From Escherichia phage PSD2001: 64,000 nt of DNA. The stretch is from sequence record OK254198.1. One strand, written 5' to 3'. Under the pieces are notes generated by a model. The model saw nothing but the letters and a program-made list of their open reading frames with translations, did not search any database and was not told the origin of the DNA. The position numbers were made by a program, and so were the translations under genes. Shown piece by piece: positions 21,501 to 47,434 of this stretch. The number at the start of each line of letters is the position of its first letter. The stretch's first letter is position 1.

Positions 21501-21928
21501 TGTTTATTATCCCTGATGATTACGAATTAACTCTTGAAAACATCGAAAGTGTTTCCGAAGAAGCTCAGGGACAATTTGATTCATTATCTGAAGCCTTAGA
21601 AAAAGACGATATAAATATTATTGTAGAAAACATGTTTGCAGCCGGTGAATACGAAAAAGCAACGGTTATCGGCGCTCTGAATGAAGGTGTTCAGCTTAAC
21701 GAATTTATCGTTAAACATGTATCGTCTCGCGGTGAGTTAACCCGCACAAAAGACCGAGCTACTCGTAAGCGTAATGCTTTCCAAACAACTGGTCTTTCTA
21801 AAGCTAAACGTCGTCAAATTGCCCGTCTGGCTACTAAAACGAAAAGAGCAAACCCATCTACGCAAATTAGAGCAGAGCGCAAGCGCAAAAAAGCTCGAGC
21901 TAAGCGTAAAGCATTCGGACTTGATTAA
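21500..21928 (+). CDS. 68: Prohead core protein gp68
   Basis: 142 aa vs 141 aa in T4; basic C-terminal tail. Confidence 0.8.
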
Positions 21929-22566
21929 TGGAACAGAAACCAGAGTTACTAATCGAACACTGGGGTCAACCGGGCGAAATTAAAGATGGTGTACCGATGT
22001 TGGAATCTCATGATGGTTCCAGCAGCGGTTTAAAGCCAGGACTTTATATTGAAGGTATTTTCCTACAAGCTGAAGTTGTTAACCGTAATAAACGACTTTA
22101 TCCTAAACATATTTTGGAAAAAGCTGTTGCGGACTATATCGCCGAACAGGTTGAAACCAAGCAGTCTCTTGGAGAATTAAACCATCCACCTCGTGCAAAC
22201 GTTGACCCTATGCAGGCGGCAATTATTATCGAGGAAATGTGGTGGAAAGGGAATGATGTATATGGCCGCGCGCGTATTATCGAAGGCGACCATGGCCCAG
22301 GTGATAAACTTGCTGCGAATATAAGAGCAGGTTGGATTCCTGGCGTATCTAGTCGTGGACTTGGTTCCCTGACTAAATCAGCAAAAGGTTATAGCATCGT
22401 TAATGAAGGTTTTAAATTGACGGTTGGAGTAGACGCAGTATGGGGGCCAAGTGCTCCGGACGCTTGGGTCAAACCAAAGCAGATTACAGAATCACAAACG
22501 GCTGTTGCCGATACCAGTGCCGATGACGCCTTTATGGCTCTCGCAGAGGCTTTAAAGACGTTATAA
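21928..22566 (+). CDS. 21: Prohead core protease gp21
   Basis: 212 aa, same length as T4 gp21; synteny. Confidence 0.9.
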   Translation: MEQKPELLIEHWGQPGEIKDGVPMLESHDGSSSGLKPGLYIEGIFLQAEVVNRNKRLYPKHILEKAVADYIAEQVETKQSLGELNHPPRANVDPMQAAIIIEEMWWKGNDVYGRARIIEGDHGPGDKLAANIRAGWIPGVSSRGLGSLTKSAKGYSIVNEGFKLTVGVDAVWGPSAPDAWVKPKQITESQTAVADTSADDAFMALAEALKTL

Positions 22567-35255: not shown

Positions 35256-35273
35256 AATTTGCTCCTTTACTGT

Positions 35274-35284
35274 ATTTATAAATA
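35274..35284. promoter_or_regulatory. Overlapping divergent late promoters (TATTTATAAATA) for gene 26 (minus) and gene 51 (plus)
   Basis: The 12-mer reads TATAAATA on both strands; ATG of 51 is 25 nt downstream and ATG of 26 is 19 nt downstream on the minus strand. Confidence 0.55.
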
Positions 35285-41499: not shown

Positions 41500-41506
41500 A
41501 AAGAAA

Positions 41507-41528
41507 GGGACCCGAAGGTCCCTTTTTT
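41507..41528. terminator. Terminator after gene 54
   Basis: GGGACCCGAAGGTCCC hairpin followed by TTTTTT; A-run upstream. Confidence 0.7.
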
Positions 41529-41817
41529 ATTTGCGGAATGAAATGAAACCTGCTGCAGTCATTACAACTTCTTTTTTAGCAAAGACTGTAATTGCAATTG
41601 GTGCTTCAGATTCAAGTTGCCCAGTTACTACACCATTAAAAATATTTTCTGTTTGTTCAGAATTTACAAAGTTTTCAACAGGGCGAAGGTCAAACTTCTT
41701 ATCTTCGCCAAACACGCGCCGTAGTTCATTACCCACCGCGCTGTCAAACTCTTCTGAAGCCGGGATAACATTCTCAACTACCAGTTCCTGACCATTAAAG
41801 CGAAAAGATGATTTCAT
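41527..41817 (-). CDS. Hypothetical protein (alt.-x position)
   Basis: 96 aa from the ATG at 41817 with a GAGGA RBS; the upstream ATG at 41850 lies within the promoter -10. Confidence 0.5.
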   Translation of the reverse strand: MKSSFRFNGQELVVENVIPASEEFDSAVGNELRRVFGEDKKFDLRPVENFVNSEQTENIFNGVVTGQLESEAPIAITVFAKKEVVMTAAGFISFRK

Positions 41818-41848: not shown

Positions 41849-41878
41849 ATTATATCGCACTTCCTTGTGCTTGTAAAC
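41849..41878 (-). promoter_or_regulatory. Early-type promoter (GTTTAC, 18 nt, TATAAT)
   Basis: Minus strand GGGTTTACaagcacaaggaagtgcgaTATAATGTTC just downstream of the alt copy 1 stop. Confidence 0.5.
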
Positions 41879-41880
41879 CC

Positions 41881-43941
41881 CTACGAAAGGAATTTAGGAG
41901 GAATAGCTTCCAAATTAATACAACTAGCAAGAATACCAAGACCTTGATTGACTTTCTTCGTTACCCCAGAGGATGCAAACGATGCAAAGTCAACAGATTC
42001 TGCTGGCTCTTCTGGTTCCTTGCCCTGATAAACGACAAGCTCACCAGTTTCCATCAACACATCACCATCATAGATAACTGCATTTTCATCCAGTTGGTCC
42101 GTAGTCTGGATATCAGCTTCCAGCATTTTGACGTTCGCGTTTCCTTGATACGAAGCATCAGTAATTTTGGTAATCTTAACTACAGTCCCACGAGGAAGAA
42201 TAACTTCCTGCTCGGATGGGTTGCTTGACAATTCCCCAGGAACAATTACGTTAATTAAGTCCGCCCCAGAAATTTTCCAACCAACATGCATCATTACGTG
42301 GTCGCGGCGTGCAGCCGGCATATCTGGTAAAACAATTTCGTCATCAGCCTGGAAAGATGTCCCATCACGATAGTCCTGATGAACTGCAGCCATAGCAACG
42401 TTCGCCACCCAGCCACCAAAGATAATCGGTTTAAACGACGTTGATACATAGTTCCTGAAATAAAATAATTTAGATTTCTTAATTTTATCAAATGTAGGAA
42501 CGTTTAAATATTGACCACGCCAAAGAGTTGTATTAGGCGGCAACTTATGTCCAATTTCAAAGGCCGAATCCAATTCCTTAATTGTTTCGACAACTCTGTC
42601 TAGATTTAGGAATTCAGCTTCTTCTTCATAATATTTACCCATCAAATAATTATTAATATCGGCATAGTTTGCTCCACAATAATCTGCAATTGCTTCTCGC
42701 TGGCCATAATGGAAACGGTTGTCAGTATACCCTGCTGTGAAATTAAGAGTATTTTCTGATGCTTCTTCGGCAAAGTCTTTAACTGCAACACGAATGGCGC
42801 TCGTGTATTCTTTTTCCCAGAGCGAGGCTGCATAAGTAGCTGCATCCAGGTTAGGAGGAGCATCATTCATTTTTCTTTCGATAAATGCAGCTTTGCGAAG
42901 GTTAAGAATCTCGGCACATGATTCGGCAAAAATCTGCATCTGCTTCATACTACCAACCGGAGCACGTTTAAGTTCACGATGCATACGGTTAAAAATTGGG
43001 TCAGAGTCTTCAACACGAATTTCTTCTTTCCAAACACCATTTGCTCGCATAGCCGTATCTGCTGCACGCATACGAGCCATAGTATTCGTTTCGGAAGGTC
43101 GAACAAAAATTTCCAGTTCTTCATAATCATCGATAAGTTCTGCCGTAGCCGGTCGACTAAACTTAGCAGCTTCTGCATCAATTTCGTCCCAGCCATCGGG
43201 CACGGAATCACTTGGAGCGTACTGGGCTTGTGCAATAGCTCGGCGACTGATTTTAGTTTTCTGGGCAACAGCAGCATCGGTCTTTTTGTTTGCTGCATCA
43301 ATCAGAACTTCGGCTGCGATTTCTTGTTTGGAGACTTGTGCGCCTGTATCTTTATTAGTGAATACATCGCCGACTTTAGTTTCAACTTTTTGATATTTCT
43401 CAGGGACCGGTGGCATACCATCAACCGAAAGCAGGTCAACACCCTTTTTGTACATAATTACATAAGCGTTCTTTTTACCGAGGCCAGAAGCATTCGGAAG
43501 AACATGATAACGCCCGCTGGTTTTCATTTGAATCAGTCGATTCATAATACGAATAACAGCTTGGTCTTGTCCTTTCATCTTTTTGGATGGGAAACGGAAC
43601 AAGACTACATCAGGTTTACCTAGTTTAATGCTTTCCCAGACTGTAACAAAAATCAGGTTAATTGCATCAAGAGGTTTTTCACCTAGACCACCCTTCAGAG
43701 GAACAGCATGGCCATGTGAAGTCCCGGAGAGCAGGAATACCTCGGCAATTGCATCACCACGTTTATATTGTTTAACTGTTTCTTTGCCCGTAAATTGCAT
43801 CAAACGAGCCATAAGAGAATTGGTCCCAGGAACACCGAATTGCCAAACCTGTGGGACCTTGTATTTTGGATTCATATTAATGACAGGATAACCGAAGGCT
43901 TCGATATATTTGTCAAAGAGTTCATTTAATTGTTCAGACAT
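41881..43941 (-). CDS. alt: Alt-like ADP-ribosyltransferase, paralog 1 (distal)
   Basis: 686 aa (T4 Alt 682 aa); C-terminal ART-like motifs (YVSTSF, SEQEVILPRGT). Confidence 0.8.
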   Translation of the reverse strand: MSEQLNELFDKYIEAFGYPVINMNPKYKVPQVWQFGVPGTNSLMARLMQFTGKETVKQYKRGDAIAEVFLLSGTSHGHAVPLKGGLGEKPLDAINLIFVTVWESIKLGKPDVVLFRFPSKKMKGQDQAVIRIMNRLIQMKTSGRYHVLPNASGLGKKNAYVIMYKKGVDLLSVDGMPPVPEKYQKVETKVGDVFTNKDTGAQVSKQEIAAEVLIDAANKKTDAAVAQKTKISRRAIAQAQYAPSDSVPDGWDEIDAEAAKFSRPATAELIDDYEELEIFVRPSETNTMARMRAADTAMRANGVWKEEIRVEDSDPIFNRMHRELKRAPVGSMKQMQIFAESCAEILNLRKAAFIERKMNDAPPNLDAATYAASLWEKEYTSAIRVAVKDFAEEASENTLNFTAGYTDNRFHYGQREAIADYCGANYADINNYLMGKYYEEEAEFLNLDRVVETIKELDSAFEIGHKLPPNTTLWRGQYLNVPTFDKIKKSKLFYFRNYVSTSFKPIIFGGWVANVAMAAVHQDYRDGTSFQADDEIVLPDMPAARRDHVMMHVGWKISGADLINVIVPGELSSNPSEQEVILPRGTVVKITKITDASYQGNANVKMLEADIQTTDQLDENAVIYDGDVLMETGELVVYQGKEPEEPAESVDFASFASSGVTKKVNQGLGILASCINLEAIPPKFLS

Positions 43942-43950
43942 TTTTAACCC

Positions 43951-45825
43951 TTAATTGAGAAGGTGTACAAGTTTTTCCATAGACAAATCATAAGAGATTC
44001 TGTCATATTTTTTCAAAAGCGAATTTGATTCGTCTATCTGGTCATTTTCTAAGATAGAGCATTCAACGAGAATGTATTTACCCATCGAACCCATCATGCC
44101 AGCTGTAGCACCATAGACTTTATCAATCTTAAGCATTGTTCCACGTGGAAGAATAACTTCGGTTTCAACGGACCAGTTTGCCAGGTCACCAGGAATAACT
44201 ACCTTGATATTTTCTGCACCTTTGATAATCATACCAATCTTGATTGTAGGTTTCGCCGAACCAGTTGCACTTTTAATAGTTGCATCGATTGCCCCATCAT
44301 CGATATCACTCGATAATGCATTTGGGTCAAGGTTCGCAGCGGTGTGGCCCATACGACCGAAAATATTTGGCGCCAGAGATGTACTCGCAAACATAGGAAG
44401 ATACATCGTTTTATTTTTGATGGAATTAATTGCCATATCGGTTGGCATGACTTGAGCACGGTAGATGATAGTTCCTTTTGGAAGCTTAACACCGTTTTCA
44501 AATACTTTATCCATATCGGAAATCATTTTGATTTCGCTTTCTTTTGCGTCAGCTTTCCCTAGCAGGAAATTATTGATTGCAGTATATTTTCCGCGAGTAT
44601 ACGCCTTAATTGCTTCGGCCTGGTCTTCAGTTATTTCAGGGTTGTCGGAGATATGAAATAATGGTTGGATGGCCTTGGTGTAAATTTCATCTGCAATAAT
44701 ACGAATAGCTTCTTTAGTCTTATCTTCGCGCGCCCAGGTTCCCACAATGGAGTCGTCAAGCAACATATCAGCAACTCTACGCAATGTATCAACAGGATTC
44801 TTTGAGGCTCGCAGGACGTTCGAAAACTCACTTATTTTGTGTTCCATGCCGACTTCTTTAAGAGCATTAAGCACATCCATAGCTACACGAGTTTTTGTCT
44901 TATCTTCACCGACATCGCCTTGCGCGACTAAATCAAAATAATCTGCATATTCATCACCTGCTCGGTCGATTACTTTTATCGAAGCTTTAGCTATCTGACT
45001 TTCTCTGGCATCATCTGTTGAATGCACTGCGCTGGTAGTCGAGAGCTTCGTATAAATCTCTTTATGTTCTGGCGAGAATTTAGCAAGCCCAGTTGGTTCG
45101 TTCCCCGAATACAACGCATTAATAGCCGCGCGTTTAGAAAACTTGGTTTTAACAACAACTGCCTGGTCTGTACGTTTTTCTTCAACCTTTGCAATGGATG
45201 CTGCAATAGCTTCATTTTTGGTAACAGTTTCACCGCTGGCTTTATCCACATAAACATCACCAACTTTCGATTCCACTTTTGTGTATAGCTCAGTGTTGAT
45301 GCCTGGAATTCCGGCGATAGATTCAATCGGTTTGGATTTACGATAAATCAATACGTAAGTATGTTTACCTGTGTATTGATACATATCATCCAGGACTTTG
45401 AATTGGCCACCCGCGCGAGCCATAATAAGTCGAGCAAGAACACGCTGAATGGTTCGTTCTTGCCCCTTCATTTTACGGGTCGGGAAGCGGAACATAATTG
45501 CATCCATTTTCATCAGTTTTACTTGTTCGTAAACTACATCAAAAATGGATTTAATTGCTCCAATCGGGTTATCACCAAGACCACCTTTAAGAATAGCTGG
45601 AGTACCGTTTGAATTTAATGACATCAAAATAACGTGTGCATACTTATCGCCAGTTTTGACCTGTTTAATAGCATCGCCTTCGGATGCGTAAGACACCATA
45701 CGAGCAATAAGATTATCATTCCCCGGGACCTGGATATTCCAAATCTGTGGAACTTTTGACTTTGAAAGGTTAATGGCCGGGATATTAGATTCCCCTTCAA
45801 AAACCTCTGACAATAATTCGGTCAT
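43951..45825 (-). CDS. Alt-like ADP-ribosyltransferase, paralog 2 (proximal)
   Basis: 624 aa; collinear with paralog 1 (PQ.W...VPG...L.ARM, FASTSL, ETEVILPRGT); 9-nt spacer to paralog 1. Confidence 0.75.
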   Translation of the reverse strand: MTELLSEVFEGESNIPAINLSKSKVPQIWNIQVPGNDNLIARMVSYASEGDAIKQVKTGDKYAHVILMSLNSNGTPAILKGGLGDNPIGAIKSIFDVVYEQVKLMKMDAIMFRFPTRKMKGQERTIQRVLARLIMARAGGQFKVLDDMYQYTGKHTYVLIYRKSKPIESIAGIPGINTELYTKVESKVGDVYVDKASGETVTKNEAIAASIAKVEEKRTDQAVVVKTKFSKRAAINALYSGNEPTGLAKFSPEHKEIYTKLSTTSAVHSTDDARESQIAKASIKVIDRAGDEYADYFDLVAQGDVGEDKTKTRVAMDVLNALKEVGMEHKISEFSNVLRASKNPVDTLRRVADMLLDDSIVGTWAREDKTKEAIRIIADEIYTKAIQPLFHISDNPEITEDQAEAIKAYTRGKYTAINNFLLGKADAKESEIKMISDMDKVFENGVKLPKGTIIYRAQVMPTDMAINSIKNKTMYLPMFASTSLAPNIFGRMGHTAANLDPNALSSDIDDGAIDATIKSATGSAKPTIKIGMIIKGAENIKVVIPGDLANWSVETEVILPRGTMLKIDKVYGATAGMMGSMGKYILVECSILENDQIDESNSLLKKYDRISYDLSMEKLVHLLN

Positions 45826-45850
45826 ATTGTTTTCCTTATAAAATATGATG

Positions 45851-45858
45851 TATTTATA
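45851..45858 (-). promoter_or_regulatory. T4-type late promoter (TATAAATA) for the alt pair
   Basis: Minus strand CGTATAAATACATC, 26 nt upstream of the paralog 2 ATG. Confidence 0.5.
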
Positions 45859-45866
45859 CGAAAAAA

Positions 45867-45890
45867 GGGCCGAAGCCCTTTTGTTATTTT
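45867..45890. terminator. Terminator after gene 30
   Basis: GGGCCGAAGCCC hairpin; on the minus strand it is followed by TTTTTTCG. Confidence 0.65.
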
Positions 45891-47425
45891 AATCCAGTCT
45901 TTGACCAGTCGCCAAATACATCTTCGAATGTGTCTGCATGGTCTTTATCGAAACGGAACCCTTTGATAATCGGCAGGAACAATGCAACCGTATTATCTTT
46001 ACGAGTCTCGGAAGTCAACCAACCATTACATTCACAGTCAGCAATCATTCCAACCAATTCACCTTTACGAGCTTTAACCATTAAGGCTTCACGGTCCATT
46101 TCATGACGCTCATCAATCGGAATAGAAACCCATTTTTTGGTTTTCTTATCTTTAACTTGAGTTGTGTCTTTAAAACCAGAACCACAGTTATTTCTAATCT
46201 TACCACAAGAAGAACGAAGCACAACACCGCCAATCTTATTCGGGTCTTTATCGTGCTCGTAATATTCAATGATTTCCATTGCAATGTCAATTACTTCTTT
46301 GAACTTATACAGGTTCTTTGAGCGCTTGTTTTCCCAAATCGATGCCATGTTCTTAAGGATAATACCTTCAAGACCTTCATCCACATATTTCTTATAGATA
46401 ACCTTCGCTTCATCGAGATTGTTAACAACATGGTTTTCAATCAGAATCATGCGGTCGAAACCATGTAGCACCACGTTATCTGCAATCATCTTTTCCAGAA
46501 CAGCAAAACGCACATCATATTTCAACGGATTGAGAATCTTAACATCAGAATAGACTTCAATCAGTGGAACATAATCCCAAACCTGGAATTTCATGCAAGA
46601 AGCTTCTGTTGCAGAAATAGTTCCTTTTAATGATTTGTTTGCCAGACCATTTGAAAAGGTTCTTGATTCTGCGAATTCCGCGAATTCTTTTGCCTTACTA
46701 AGCTCAGGCATATCGTCAAAAAGGAAGCCCAAACCGTCATTCTGGGGAGCTACTTTCTGTTCATGGTATACTAACTCGCCGTCAATCAAAACGCCCTCAG
46801 GATGTCTCTCACGCGCTTCACGGGTAGCTTCAATCAATTCCTTTTTAAGGAGGTCAAGCTTGAGGTATTCGTTGCCAGCTCGGGATAACAATCGAACATC
46901 ATCCAACTCATCGCCACGAACTTCTGCAAAACACCGAGCGCCGTCGGCTTTCAATTGCGCAAAGGCCGGGAACTTAATGTTCTTGGCAATACCGGCTTCA
47001 TCATAGGAAGAAGCGAGCATCTGTGGTTGTTCAGGAATTAAACCTTTCCAAACCTTATTCGCAATTGATACGGATGCCCCGCATTCCAGGTCACGCATCA
47101 TCACACGGCGAAGAACTTCAACATCAGCCTTTTTACCATCTGCAATATAGCCAGATAATTCCTCGATTGCAGCATTACCTGTCAATTTGCGAGAGGCCAA
47201 TGTGAATTCGATAAAGTCAAGCATATCATCGATATTCAGCATACCAAAGCTTTGTGTCGTTGCCCCAGGTTTAGGCCATTTCTTAATATAGAACTGGATG
47301 CCTTTGGAATATGTCAAACGATACACGCGTTTAAGGGTTTCATTGTCAGAATACGATTCCAGGATAGCTTGTTTCTCTTTAGTGGAATCGGTTGCAGCAA
47401 TTTCATTTAAAATATCTAAAATCAT
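45884..47425 (-). CDS. 30: ATP-dependent DNA ligase gp30
   Basis: 513 aa from ATG at 47425 (AAGAGGTGA RBS); strong similarity to remembered T4 DNA ligase (MIL.ILNEIA...KRVYRLTYS...YIKKWPKPG). Confidence 0.92.
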   Translation of the reverse strand: MILDILNEIAATDSTKEKQAILESYSDNETLKRVYRLTYSKGIQFYIKKWPKPGATTQSFGMLNIDDMLDFIEFTLASRKLTGNAAIEELSGYIADGKKADVEVLRRVMMRDLECGASVSIANKVWKGLIPEQPQMLASSYDEAGIAKNIKFPAFAQLKADGARCFAEVRGDELDDVRLLSRAGNEYLKLDLLKKELIEATREARERHPEGVLIDGELVYHEQKVAPQNDGLGFLFDDMPELSKAKEFAEFAESRTFSNGLANKSLKGTISATEASCMKFQVWDYVPLIEVYSDVKILNPLKYDVRFAVLEKMIADNVVLHGFDRMILIENHVVNNLDEAKVIYKKYVDEGLEGIILKNMASIWENKRSKNLYKFKEVIDIAMEIIEYYEHDKDPNKIGGVVLRSSCGKIRNNCGSGFKDTTQVKDKKTKKWVSIPIDERHEMDREALMVKARKGELVGMIADCECNGWLTSETRKDNTVALFLPIIKGFRFDKDHADTFEDVFGDWSKTGLK

Positions 47426-47434
47426 AATCACCTC

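Follow-up and report, generated by a model that had tools for sequence, protein, structure and literature searches.

Alt of bacteriophage T4 is the textbook case of an enzyme that is injected together with the phage DNA to reprogram the host, and RNA polymerase, translation factors and the MazF toxin are among its targets. In T4, about 40 copies of Alt reside in the prohead core, and the protein is later ejected into the host (PMC9026906), after having been trimmed by the gp21 protease at ITE-6 and LTE-619 to 68.2 kDa, as determined by mass spectrometry (PMC5694885). Acting alone it modifies at least 27 host proteins including RNA polymerase alpha, EF-Tu and MazF, with R265 as the site on RNA polymerase alpha (PMC8120803). 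Here we analyse a 64,000-nucleotide (nt) stretch of Escherichia phage PSD2001 (record OK254198.1), called the window below, to which all coordinates refer. Between its positions 41,881 and 45,858 two minus-strand open reading frames (ORFs), copy A of 624 amino acids (aa) and copy B of 686 aa, follow each other with a spacer of 9 nt. An original prediction, made from the sequence alone, had described them as two Alt-type genes under one late promoter, and the ORFs and their spacing were found to be correct. Very probably A and B are a tandem pair of Alt-family, arginine-specific mono-ADP-ribosyltransferases that would be transcribed together late in infection, packaged, trimmed and injected, with A as an accessory gene of lateral origin and B as the resident one.

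Both copies carry the marks of the Alt family, namely a full-length profile match that includes the N-terminal 400 residues lying outside the ADP-ribosyltransferase (ART) domain, and an ART domain of the R-S-E / VIP2 clade. PHROG 802 (Alt-like) matched B at 7.6e-225 over residues 1-685 and A at 3.2e-198 over residues 1-603, and Pfam PF03496 (ADPrib_exo_Tox) matched them at 2.2e-19 (70 bits) and 2.4e-15 (56.8 bits), respectively, well above its curated cut-off of 23.4 bits, so the predicted Alt type of both stands. Aligned from end to end, A and B share 33% identity. No NCBIfam model matched A or B, and a single-sequence search of the PDB was uninformative for B and marginal for A; the Alt family profile, searched against the PDB, matched C3cer, BECa, VIP2, Vis, CDTa and iota. 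AlphaFold2, run with alignments of 65 sequences, gave models with predicted local distance difference test scores of 81 and 80 and predicted template modelling scores of 0.71 and 0.70 for A and B, respectively. Their architecture is the same: an alpha/beta N-domain (about residues 1-200) is followed by a helical middle region and, at the C-terminus, by the ART domain, which in both copies is confidently modelled as a C3/VIP2/iota-type fold. A Foldseek search with the ART domain of B retrieved Vis, C3, VIP2 and Certhrax (E 2e-7).

The catalytic residues are complete in both copies. The STS and E-x-E motifs that the original prediction had recognised lie at S481-T-S483 and E554-T-E556 in A and at S500-T-S502 and E577-Q-E579 in B, and to these we add the catalytic Arg, R456 in A and R475 in B. 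In the family alignment of 65 Alt sequences the Arg is kept in 64 members, while the first Ser and both Glu are kept in all 65. The Arg and the E-x-E of both copies align with R72 and E163/E165 of T4 ModA (residues listed in PMC8120803), R475 and E579 of B being the counterparts of R72 and E165. The alignment to T4 Alt, ModA and ModB, which had been suggested as a check, left neither copy without catalytic residues. Moreover, the ratio of non-synonymous to synonymous substitution rates (dN/dS) is 0.02-0.03 for A in comparison with SP18, P896 and phage 212 (against SP18 about 0.03, with 54 synonymous and 6 non-synonymous differences) and 0.07-0.18 for B. Both copies are under strong purifying selection, and both are apparently functional.

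A separate observation concerns the only member of the 65 that has no catalytic Arg, the reference Alt of RB69 (protein P0106), in which about 55 residues (…GDRYLKDKRYIELSLSECLF…RYSTSETMFPLHKLLLF…) replace the region of the catalytic Arg and the S-T-S. This segment looks like an out-of-frame stretch, due either to a sequencing error or to a real inactivation.

As to transcription, TATAAATA, the core of a T4-type late promoter, has one single exact match on the minus strand in or upstream of the pair, ahead of A, which bears out, at sequence level, the proposal of one late promoter for both genes. A one-mismatch scan ahead of B gave only two unconvincing internal sites, and a second late promoter for B was rejected, no plausibly placed site being found within one mismatch of TATAAATA. 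In the whole window TATAAATA occurs 19 times versus 4.3 expected by chance, an excess that fits a late-promoter regime of the T4 type. At the position of A's predicted promoter the motif (T/C)ATAAATA is invariant in VR20, VR7, T4, JK08, WG01, QL01, VR5 and RB69, so that its position is kept across 9 phages, and the hairpin 5′ of the first alt gene is likewise kept in 9 phages. This hairpin, the predicted terminator of gene 30, would shield the alt unit from upstream transcription. Judging from these features and from T4, late transcription of both A and B would start at the one TATAAATA promoter that follows the terminator of gene 30. The spacer between them holds only TAAGGG, a weak Shine-Dalgarno sequence for B, and B is therefore probably translated by coupling to A or by re-initiation over the 9 nt.

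The next question is where the second copy came from. By its DNA the phage is a Gaprivervirus, an SP18-like T-even phage about 97% identical to Shigella phage SP18; at the locus itself identity is 96.6-97.5% to Shigella phage SP18 and to Escherichia phages P896 and 212, all of them Gapriverviruses. Most Gapriverviruses (VR7, VR20, VR25, VR26 and others) carry B only between gene 30 and alt.-3, and on the sequences compared B is the resident alt of all Gapriverviruses and A an accessory gene of a subgroup. Homology to VR20 and VR7 in blastn ends at 45832 and restarts at 43941, which is the ATG of B, and six unrelated nt stand in VR20 and VR7 in the place of the cassette so delimited. The cassette sits between the shared terminator, promoter and Shine-Dalgarno block and the ATG of B, and in the single-copy phages the same promoter would drive B directly. 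It was found in this phage, SP18, P896, phage 212 and DCP80.

Domain-wise identities and neighbour-joining trees group the ART domains by paralog type across genera. The first group unites A with SP18 alta and WG01_201 (69% to A), while the second, sister to the T4-Alt type, contains B together with the alts of VR7 and VR20, SP18 altb and QL01_200 (75%), and a further type comprises JK08 alt_1 and the last alt of the Dhakaviruses. The N-domain of A is 63-71% identical to those of Dhakavirus alts versus 42% to that of B, its ART domain is 69% identical to that of WG01_201 versus 34% to that of B, and its nearest relative outside the SP18 subgroup is a Dhakavirus alt at 63%, the first alt of the WG01-like phages. 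Since both its N-domain and its ART domain are nearer to Dhakavirus alts than to B, A was gained laterally and not duplicated in place, and a local tandem duplication as its origin was rejected in view of the domain identities and the clean cassette indel. B would belong to the lineage nearest to T4 Alt, and A to a separate old Alt lineage that it has in common with the first alt of WG01-like Dhakaviruses. The A type is also rare. Among 1,215 phage records with a match, five held a sequence at least 99% identical and eight a sequence 60-80% identical, and only 2 clusters at 90% identity among 315 homologues are of this type.

Exchange at this locus may reach inside the genes. QL01_200 is a mosaic of a Dhakavirus-type N-domain (41% to B) with a middle 82% and an ART domain 75% identical to those of B, which points to a crossover around residue 240, where the conserved KTKISRRA motif lies, and shows that modules of alt genes recombine. 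The 141-kb record of Escherichia phage DCP80 (PQ671644) has an intact A (99.7%), but of B only 426 nt are left, next to the rIIA region; a large deletion or an artefact of the assembly would account for this truncated B.

Tandem alt genes are in fact widespread, have been known since 2006, and are named as such in the records of the nearest relatives. Nolan et al. (PMC1524935) described a duplication of the full-length alt in 44RR and partial duplications in RB49, 44RR and T4. The GenBank record of SP18 (GQ981382, 2010) names the very same pair alta/altb, and these names are also used in JS10 and IME08, so the novelty that the original prediction implied does not hold. That the pair might be a standard one with known roles had also been considered; it is indeed annotated in the closest relatives, yet no roles are known for it. 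Two full-length copies are found in IME08, JS10, VR5, the Tequatrovirus JK08 (alt_2/alt_1) and Aeromonas phage Riv-10, and three in WG01 and QL01. In at least 4 genera arrays of one to three alt genes occupy the alt locus, the spacers between copies measuring 3-9 nt in every case (3-8 nt in WG01, QL01, JK08 and T4 alt/alt.-1) and a single (T/C)ATAAATA preceding each array. With the ART domain of B as query, tblastn gave 1,823 places in 1,221 phage records, and about half of the records with a match that were evenly sampled (28/60) have at least two ART copies.

The statement that T4 carries one alt gene needs to be completed in this light. T4 has one intact copy, while a second one was lost, leaving the alt.-1/alt.-2 stump; according to the T4 record, alt.-1/alt.-2 arose when the start of alt was duplicated. 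Read in two frames, alt.-1/alt.-2 is 95-97% identical to residues 1-116 of JK08 alt_1, which argues that T4 descends from an ancestor with two alts, of which the second was lost and left a frameshifted stump. What our sequence comparisons would add to the earlier knowledge is the boundaries of the cassette, the lateral, Dhakavirus-like origin of A and its rarity, the retention of both protease sites, evidence for the functional state of both copies and the match of the T4 stump to JK08 alt_1. Our literature search on Alt paralogs, the SP18 alt genes, virion proteomics of two-alt phages and a GNAT-like Alt domain found nothing specific.

It is plausible that A and B have different targets, as had been proposed for the pair. 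Within the ART domain, entropy is 2.0-2.5 bits in the 8-residue loop between P-G and E-x-E and in the insert that follows the STS, versus 1.0-1.3 bits in the catalytic core, and in the loop A has W551 where B has N574. We take this loop, which lies between the invariant P-G and the E-x-E, to be the ADP-ribosylating toxin turn-turn (ARTT) loop of substrate recognition, by analogy with C3 and iota. Moreover, A and B share only 34% identity in the ART domain, where each groups with its paralog type from other genera, suggesting that the two lineages have long been kept apart. With conserved catalytic cores and differing substrate-facing loops, target sets that overlap without being identical would be most likely, and the breadth of T4 Alt, with its 27 or more targets, leads to the same expectation of a partial overlap. 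To our knowledge, the targets of Alt paralogs have apparently never been compared.

Alternatively, A and B might be redundant, both mainly modifying Arg265 of RNA polymerase alpha, with the second copy providing dose or robustness. Both are of the arginine type (E-x-E) and agree in architecture, promoter and processing motifs, B alone suffices for most Gapriverviruses, and T4 Alt is itself non-essential (PMC9026906). However, the divergence of the ART domains, maintained for long in lineages that are separate across genera, is greatest in the ARTT loop and the post-STS insert, and the very strong purifying selection on A (dN/dS about 0.03) would be unexpected for a spare copy. We regard redundancy as unlikely, although it retains some weight. 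A bolder proposal makes the alt locus an exchange site for cassettes of injected effectors, in which a conserved N-domain serves as packaging module and the middle-plus-ART modules are swapped, as in QL01_200; A would be a counter-defence effector with a target unlike that of T4 Alt, and the so far unannotated N-domain, with its invariant KGGLG..P loop, may be GNAT-like. We advance this only tentatively and consider it doubtful; if it were true, a GNAT-like N-domain would make Alt proteins two-enzyme effectors. The N-domain has 17 invariant columns when aligned with 13 Alt proteins, and the lead to a GNAT-like fold is without sequence support. As a side observation, PF26846, presumably a newer model for the part outside the ART domain, is precomputed alongside PF03496 for all 120 homologues listed, and the Pfam scan reported no match of it to A or B even at E<=10. 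More generally, the presence of two to three diverged Alts in many T-even relatives, swapped as cassettes, suggests a repertoire of injected ARTs that is tuned to the host.

Returning to the proposed packaged pair, homology with T4 Alt suggests that A and B become part of the prohead core, where the gp21-type protease would cut them at (L/I)-x-E near both ends. The T4 cleavage sites align with LSE7 and IDE599 of copy A and with LNE7 and LDE619 of copy B; among the family members the Glu is present in 65/65 at the N-terminal site and in 64/65 at the C-terminal one, and P3 is L or I in nearly all. Cleavage there would give mature proteins of about 64.9 kDa (A) and 68.6 kDa (B). The AlphaFold2 models are disordered at residues 1-8 and 598-614 of A and at 1-15 of B. 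Finally, the mature proteins would enter the next host cell by injection along with the phage DNA and there ADP-ribosylate arginines of its proteins, as expected from the E-x-E.

The copies differ in what follows the C-terminal site. B has a conserved C-propeptide of 67 residues (YDGDxLMETGE...ASCI..P.KF), 58% identical to that of T4 Alt, and this tail is present in all Alt types compared except A and WG01_201. A might accordingly be neither packaged nor injected, and stay in the producing cell to act late, with B alone entering the new host; in fact a targeting role of Alt propeptides was described as an open question (PMC5694885). Against this, the N-propeptide and N-domain, which are the best conserved part of the family (mean entropy 1.03 bits), are intact in A, and internal proteins of T4 are targeted to the core by short N-terminal sequences (PMC5694885). 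Moreover, A keeps an (I)-x-E at the aligned C-terminal position, which would be pointless in a protein that never meets the prohead protease. We consider an unpackaged A improbable. The last explanation, a decaying or catalytically dead duplicate, could invoke the alt remnants of T4 and the truncated B of DCP80, but with A and B both of full length, holding every catalytic residue, confidently folded in the ART domain and with dN/dS far below 1, such a pseudogene or dead enzyme was rejected and has hardly any probability.

Some points weigh against the interpretation that we favour, a late pair that is packaged, trimmed and injected. The ARTT-loop argument is drawn by analogy from the C3 and iota toxins and not from an Alt structure, and packaging, cleavage, injection and targets are transferred to A and B only from T4 Alt, their homologue. 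A, without the 67-residue C-propeptide, has just 25 unrelated residues after its motif, and if the tail is needed for incorporation into the core, A may go unpackaged. Lastly, transcripts that read through from further upstream, or weak promoters ahead of B that deviate from the consensus, might contribute as well.

Coordinates in the window of the tandem alt genes, their signals and domains, and neighbouring features
Feature	Position	Strand	Remarks
Copy B ORF (altb type)	41881..43941	-	686 aa; ORF list
Copy A ORF (alta type)	43951..45825	-	624 aa; ORF list
A/B spacer	43942..43950	-	9 nt, GGGTTAAAA; between TAA of A and ATG of B
Predicted late promoter core TATAAATA, T4-type	45851..45858	-	25 nt 5′ of the ATG of A
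Shine-Dalgarno-like AAGGA for A	45833..45837	-	Untranslated region up to here common to single-copy VR20 and VR7
Indel cassette	43942..45831		1,890 nt; 6 nt of untranslated region, A ORF and spacer; blastn breakpoints
ART domain of A	44029..44637	-	
ART domain of B	42085..42711	-	
Catalytic residues of A	44458-44460; 44377-44385; 44158-44166		R456; S481-T-S483; E554-T-E556
Catalytic residues of B	42517-42519; 42436-42444; 42205-42213		R475; S500-T-S502; E577-Q-E579
Domains of protein A			N-propeptide 1-7 (LSE/V), N-domain 8-240, helical middle 241-396, ART 397-599, C-propeptide 600-624 after IDE599
Domains of protein B			N-propeptide 1-7 (LNE/L), ART 411-619, C-propeptide 620-686 after LDE619; architecture as in A
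Predicted terminator of gene 30	45863..45882	-	G+C-rich hairpin followed by T-run; palindrome listing
Gene 30 (DNA ligase)	45884-47431		Upstream neighbour
alt.-3 homologue (DUF5498)	41527..41817	-	Next gene downstream of B; Pfam PF17602 1.2e-33, residues 12-107
Sigma-70-like promoter TTTACA-17-TATAAT	41877..41849	-	Between stop of B and alt.-3; promoter scan 11/12
Terminator hairpin	41504..41525	-	Lies where alt.-3 and gene 54 converge; the late alt transcript likely ends here
gp21-type prohead (head maturation) protease	21928..22566	+	PHROG 207 at 4e-76

The pair sits between gene 30 and alt.-3 / gene 54 and is transcribed opposite to the baseplate genes, a layout that is the same in T4, SP18, VR7, VR20, RB69, WG01, QL01, VR5 and JK08. 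The start of alt.-3 is probably the ATG at 41817 and not that at 41850, given that the Pfam match begins at residue 12. With a near-consensus sigma-70-type promoter of its own, alt.-3 may be expressed early by itself, besides by late read-through; no terminator-like site was found between B and alt.-3, and late transcripts probably run on through the latter. The window also encodes portal, a gp68-like protein, the gp21-type protease, scaffold and major head protein, the neighbours of the protease matching PHROG 213, 1049, 237 and 138, and this protease would be expected to process both A and B. Plus-strand ORFs inside the alt genes (e.g. 42979-43623, 214 aa) were taken as antisense artefacts of the coding region. 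Elsewhere in the window two overlapping TATAAATA lie between divergent ORFs, at 35273-35280 (minus) and 35277-35284 (plus), and may form a back-to-back pair of late promoters.

Among the known systems that are related are the toxins C3, VIP2, iota, CDTa, Vis and Certhrax, which show 14-20% sequence identity and are delivered by secretion or through a binary-toxin pore, whereas Alt travels in the phage capsid and enters by DNA ejection. ModA and ModB of T4 belong to the same R-S-E clade, and their catalytic Arg and E-x-E align with those of A and B. Yet they are early, non-packaged proteins of about 200 aa without N-domain or helical middle, they do not lie at the alt locus and have no late promoter, and they share 15-16% identity with the ART domains of the pair, which places A and B in the Alt type and not in the ModA/ModB type.

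T4 Alt (gpAlt, NP_049811) has the same locus and the same layout of terminator, late-promoter motif and Shine-Dalgarno sequence, and its division into three parts, its R-S-ExE site and its gp21 cleavage motifs at the N- and C-terminal ends are found again in A and B. In the ART domain A shares 34% and B 39% identity with T4 Alt, and in the N-domain the values are 45% for A and 38% for B. Of the differences, T4 has one intact alt with the alt.-1/alt.-2 stump as compared to two intact copies here, and the long C-propeptide of T4 Alt is present in B and missing in A.

The other tandem arrays (JS10, IME08, VR5, WG01, QL01, JK08, Riv-10 and 44RR ORF187c) likewise have head-to-tail alts at the same locus; unlike them, the SP18 subgroup has its own specific combination of an A-type with a B-type copy. 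The searched literature held no experimental work on the alt proteins of SP18, P896 or 212, in which the genes, their order and their spacing between gene 30 and alt.-3 are the same as here (in SP18, alta is ADO19552 and altb ADO19551). The A protein described here is 99.0-99.2% identical to theirs and only point differences are seen at the locus, while the ART domain of B is 92% identical to that of SP18 altb and 100% to that of VR20 alt. The pair itself is neither new nor surprising; its value lies in the natural comparison that it offers between phages with A and B (SP18, P896 and 212) and phages with B only (VR7 and VR20).

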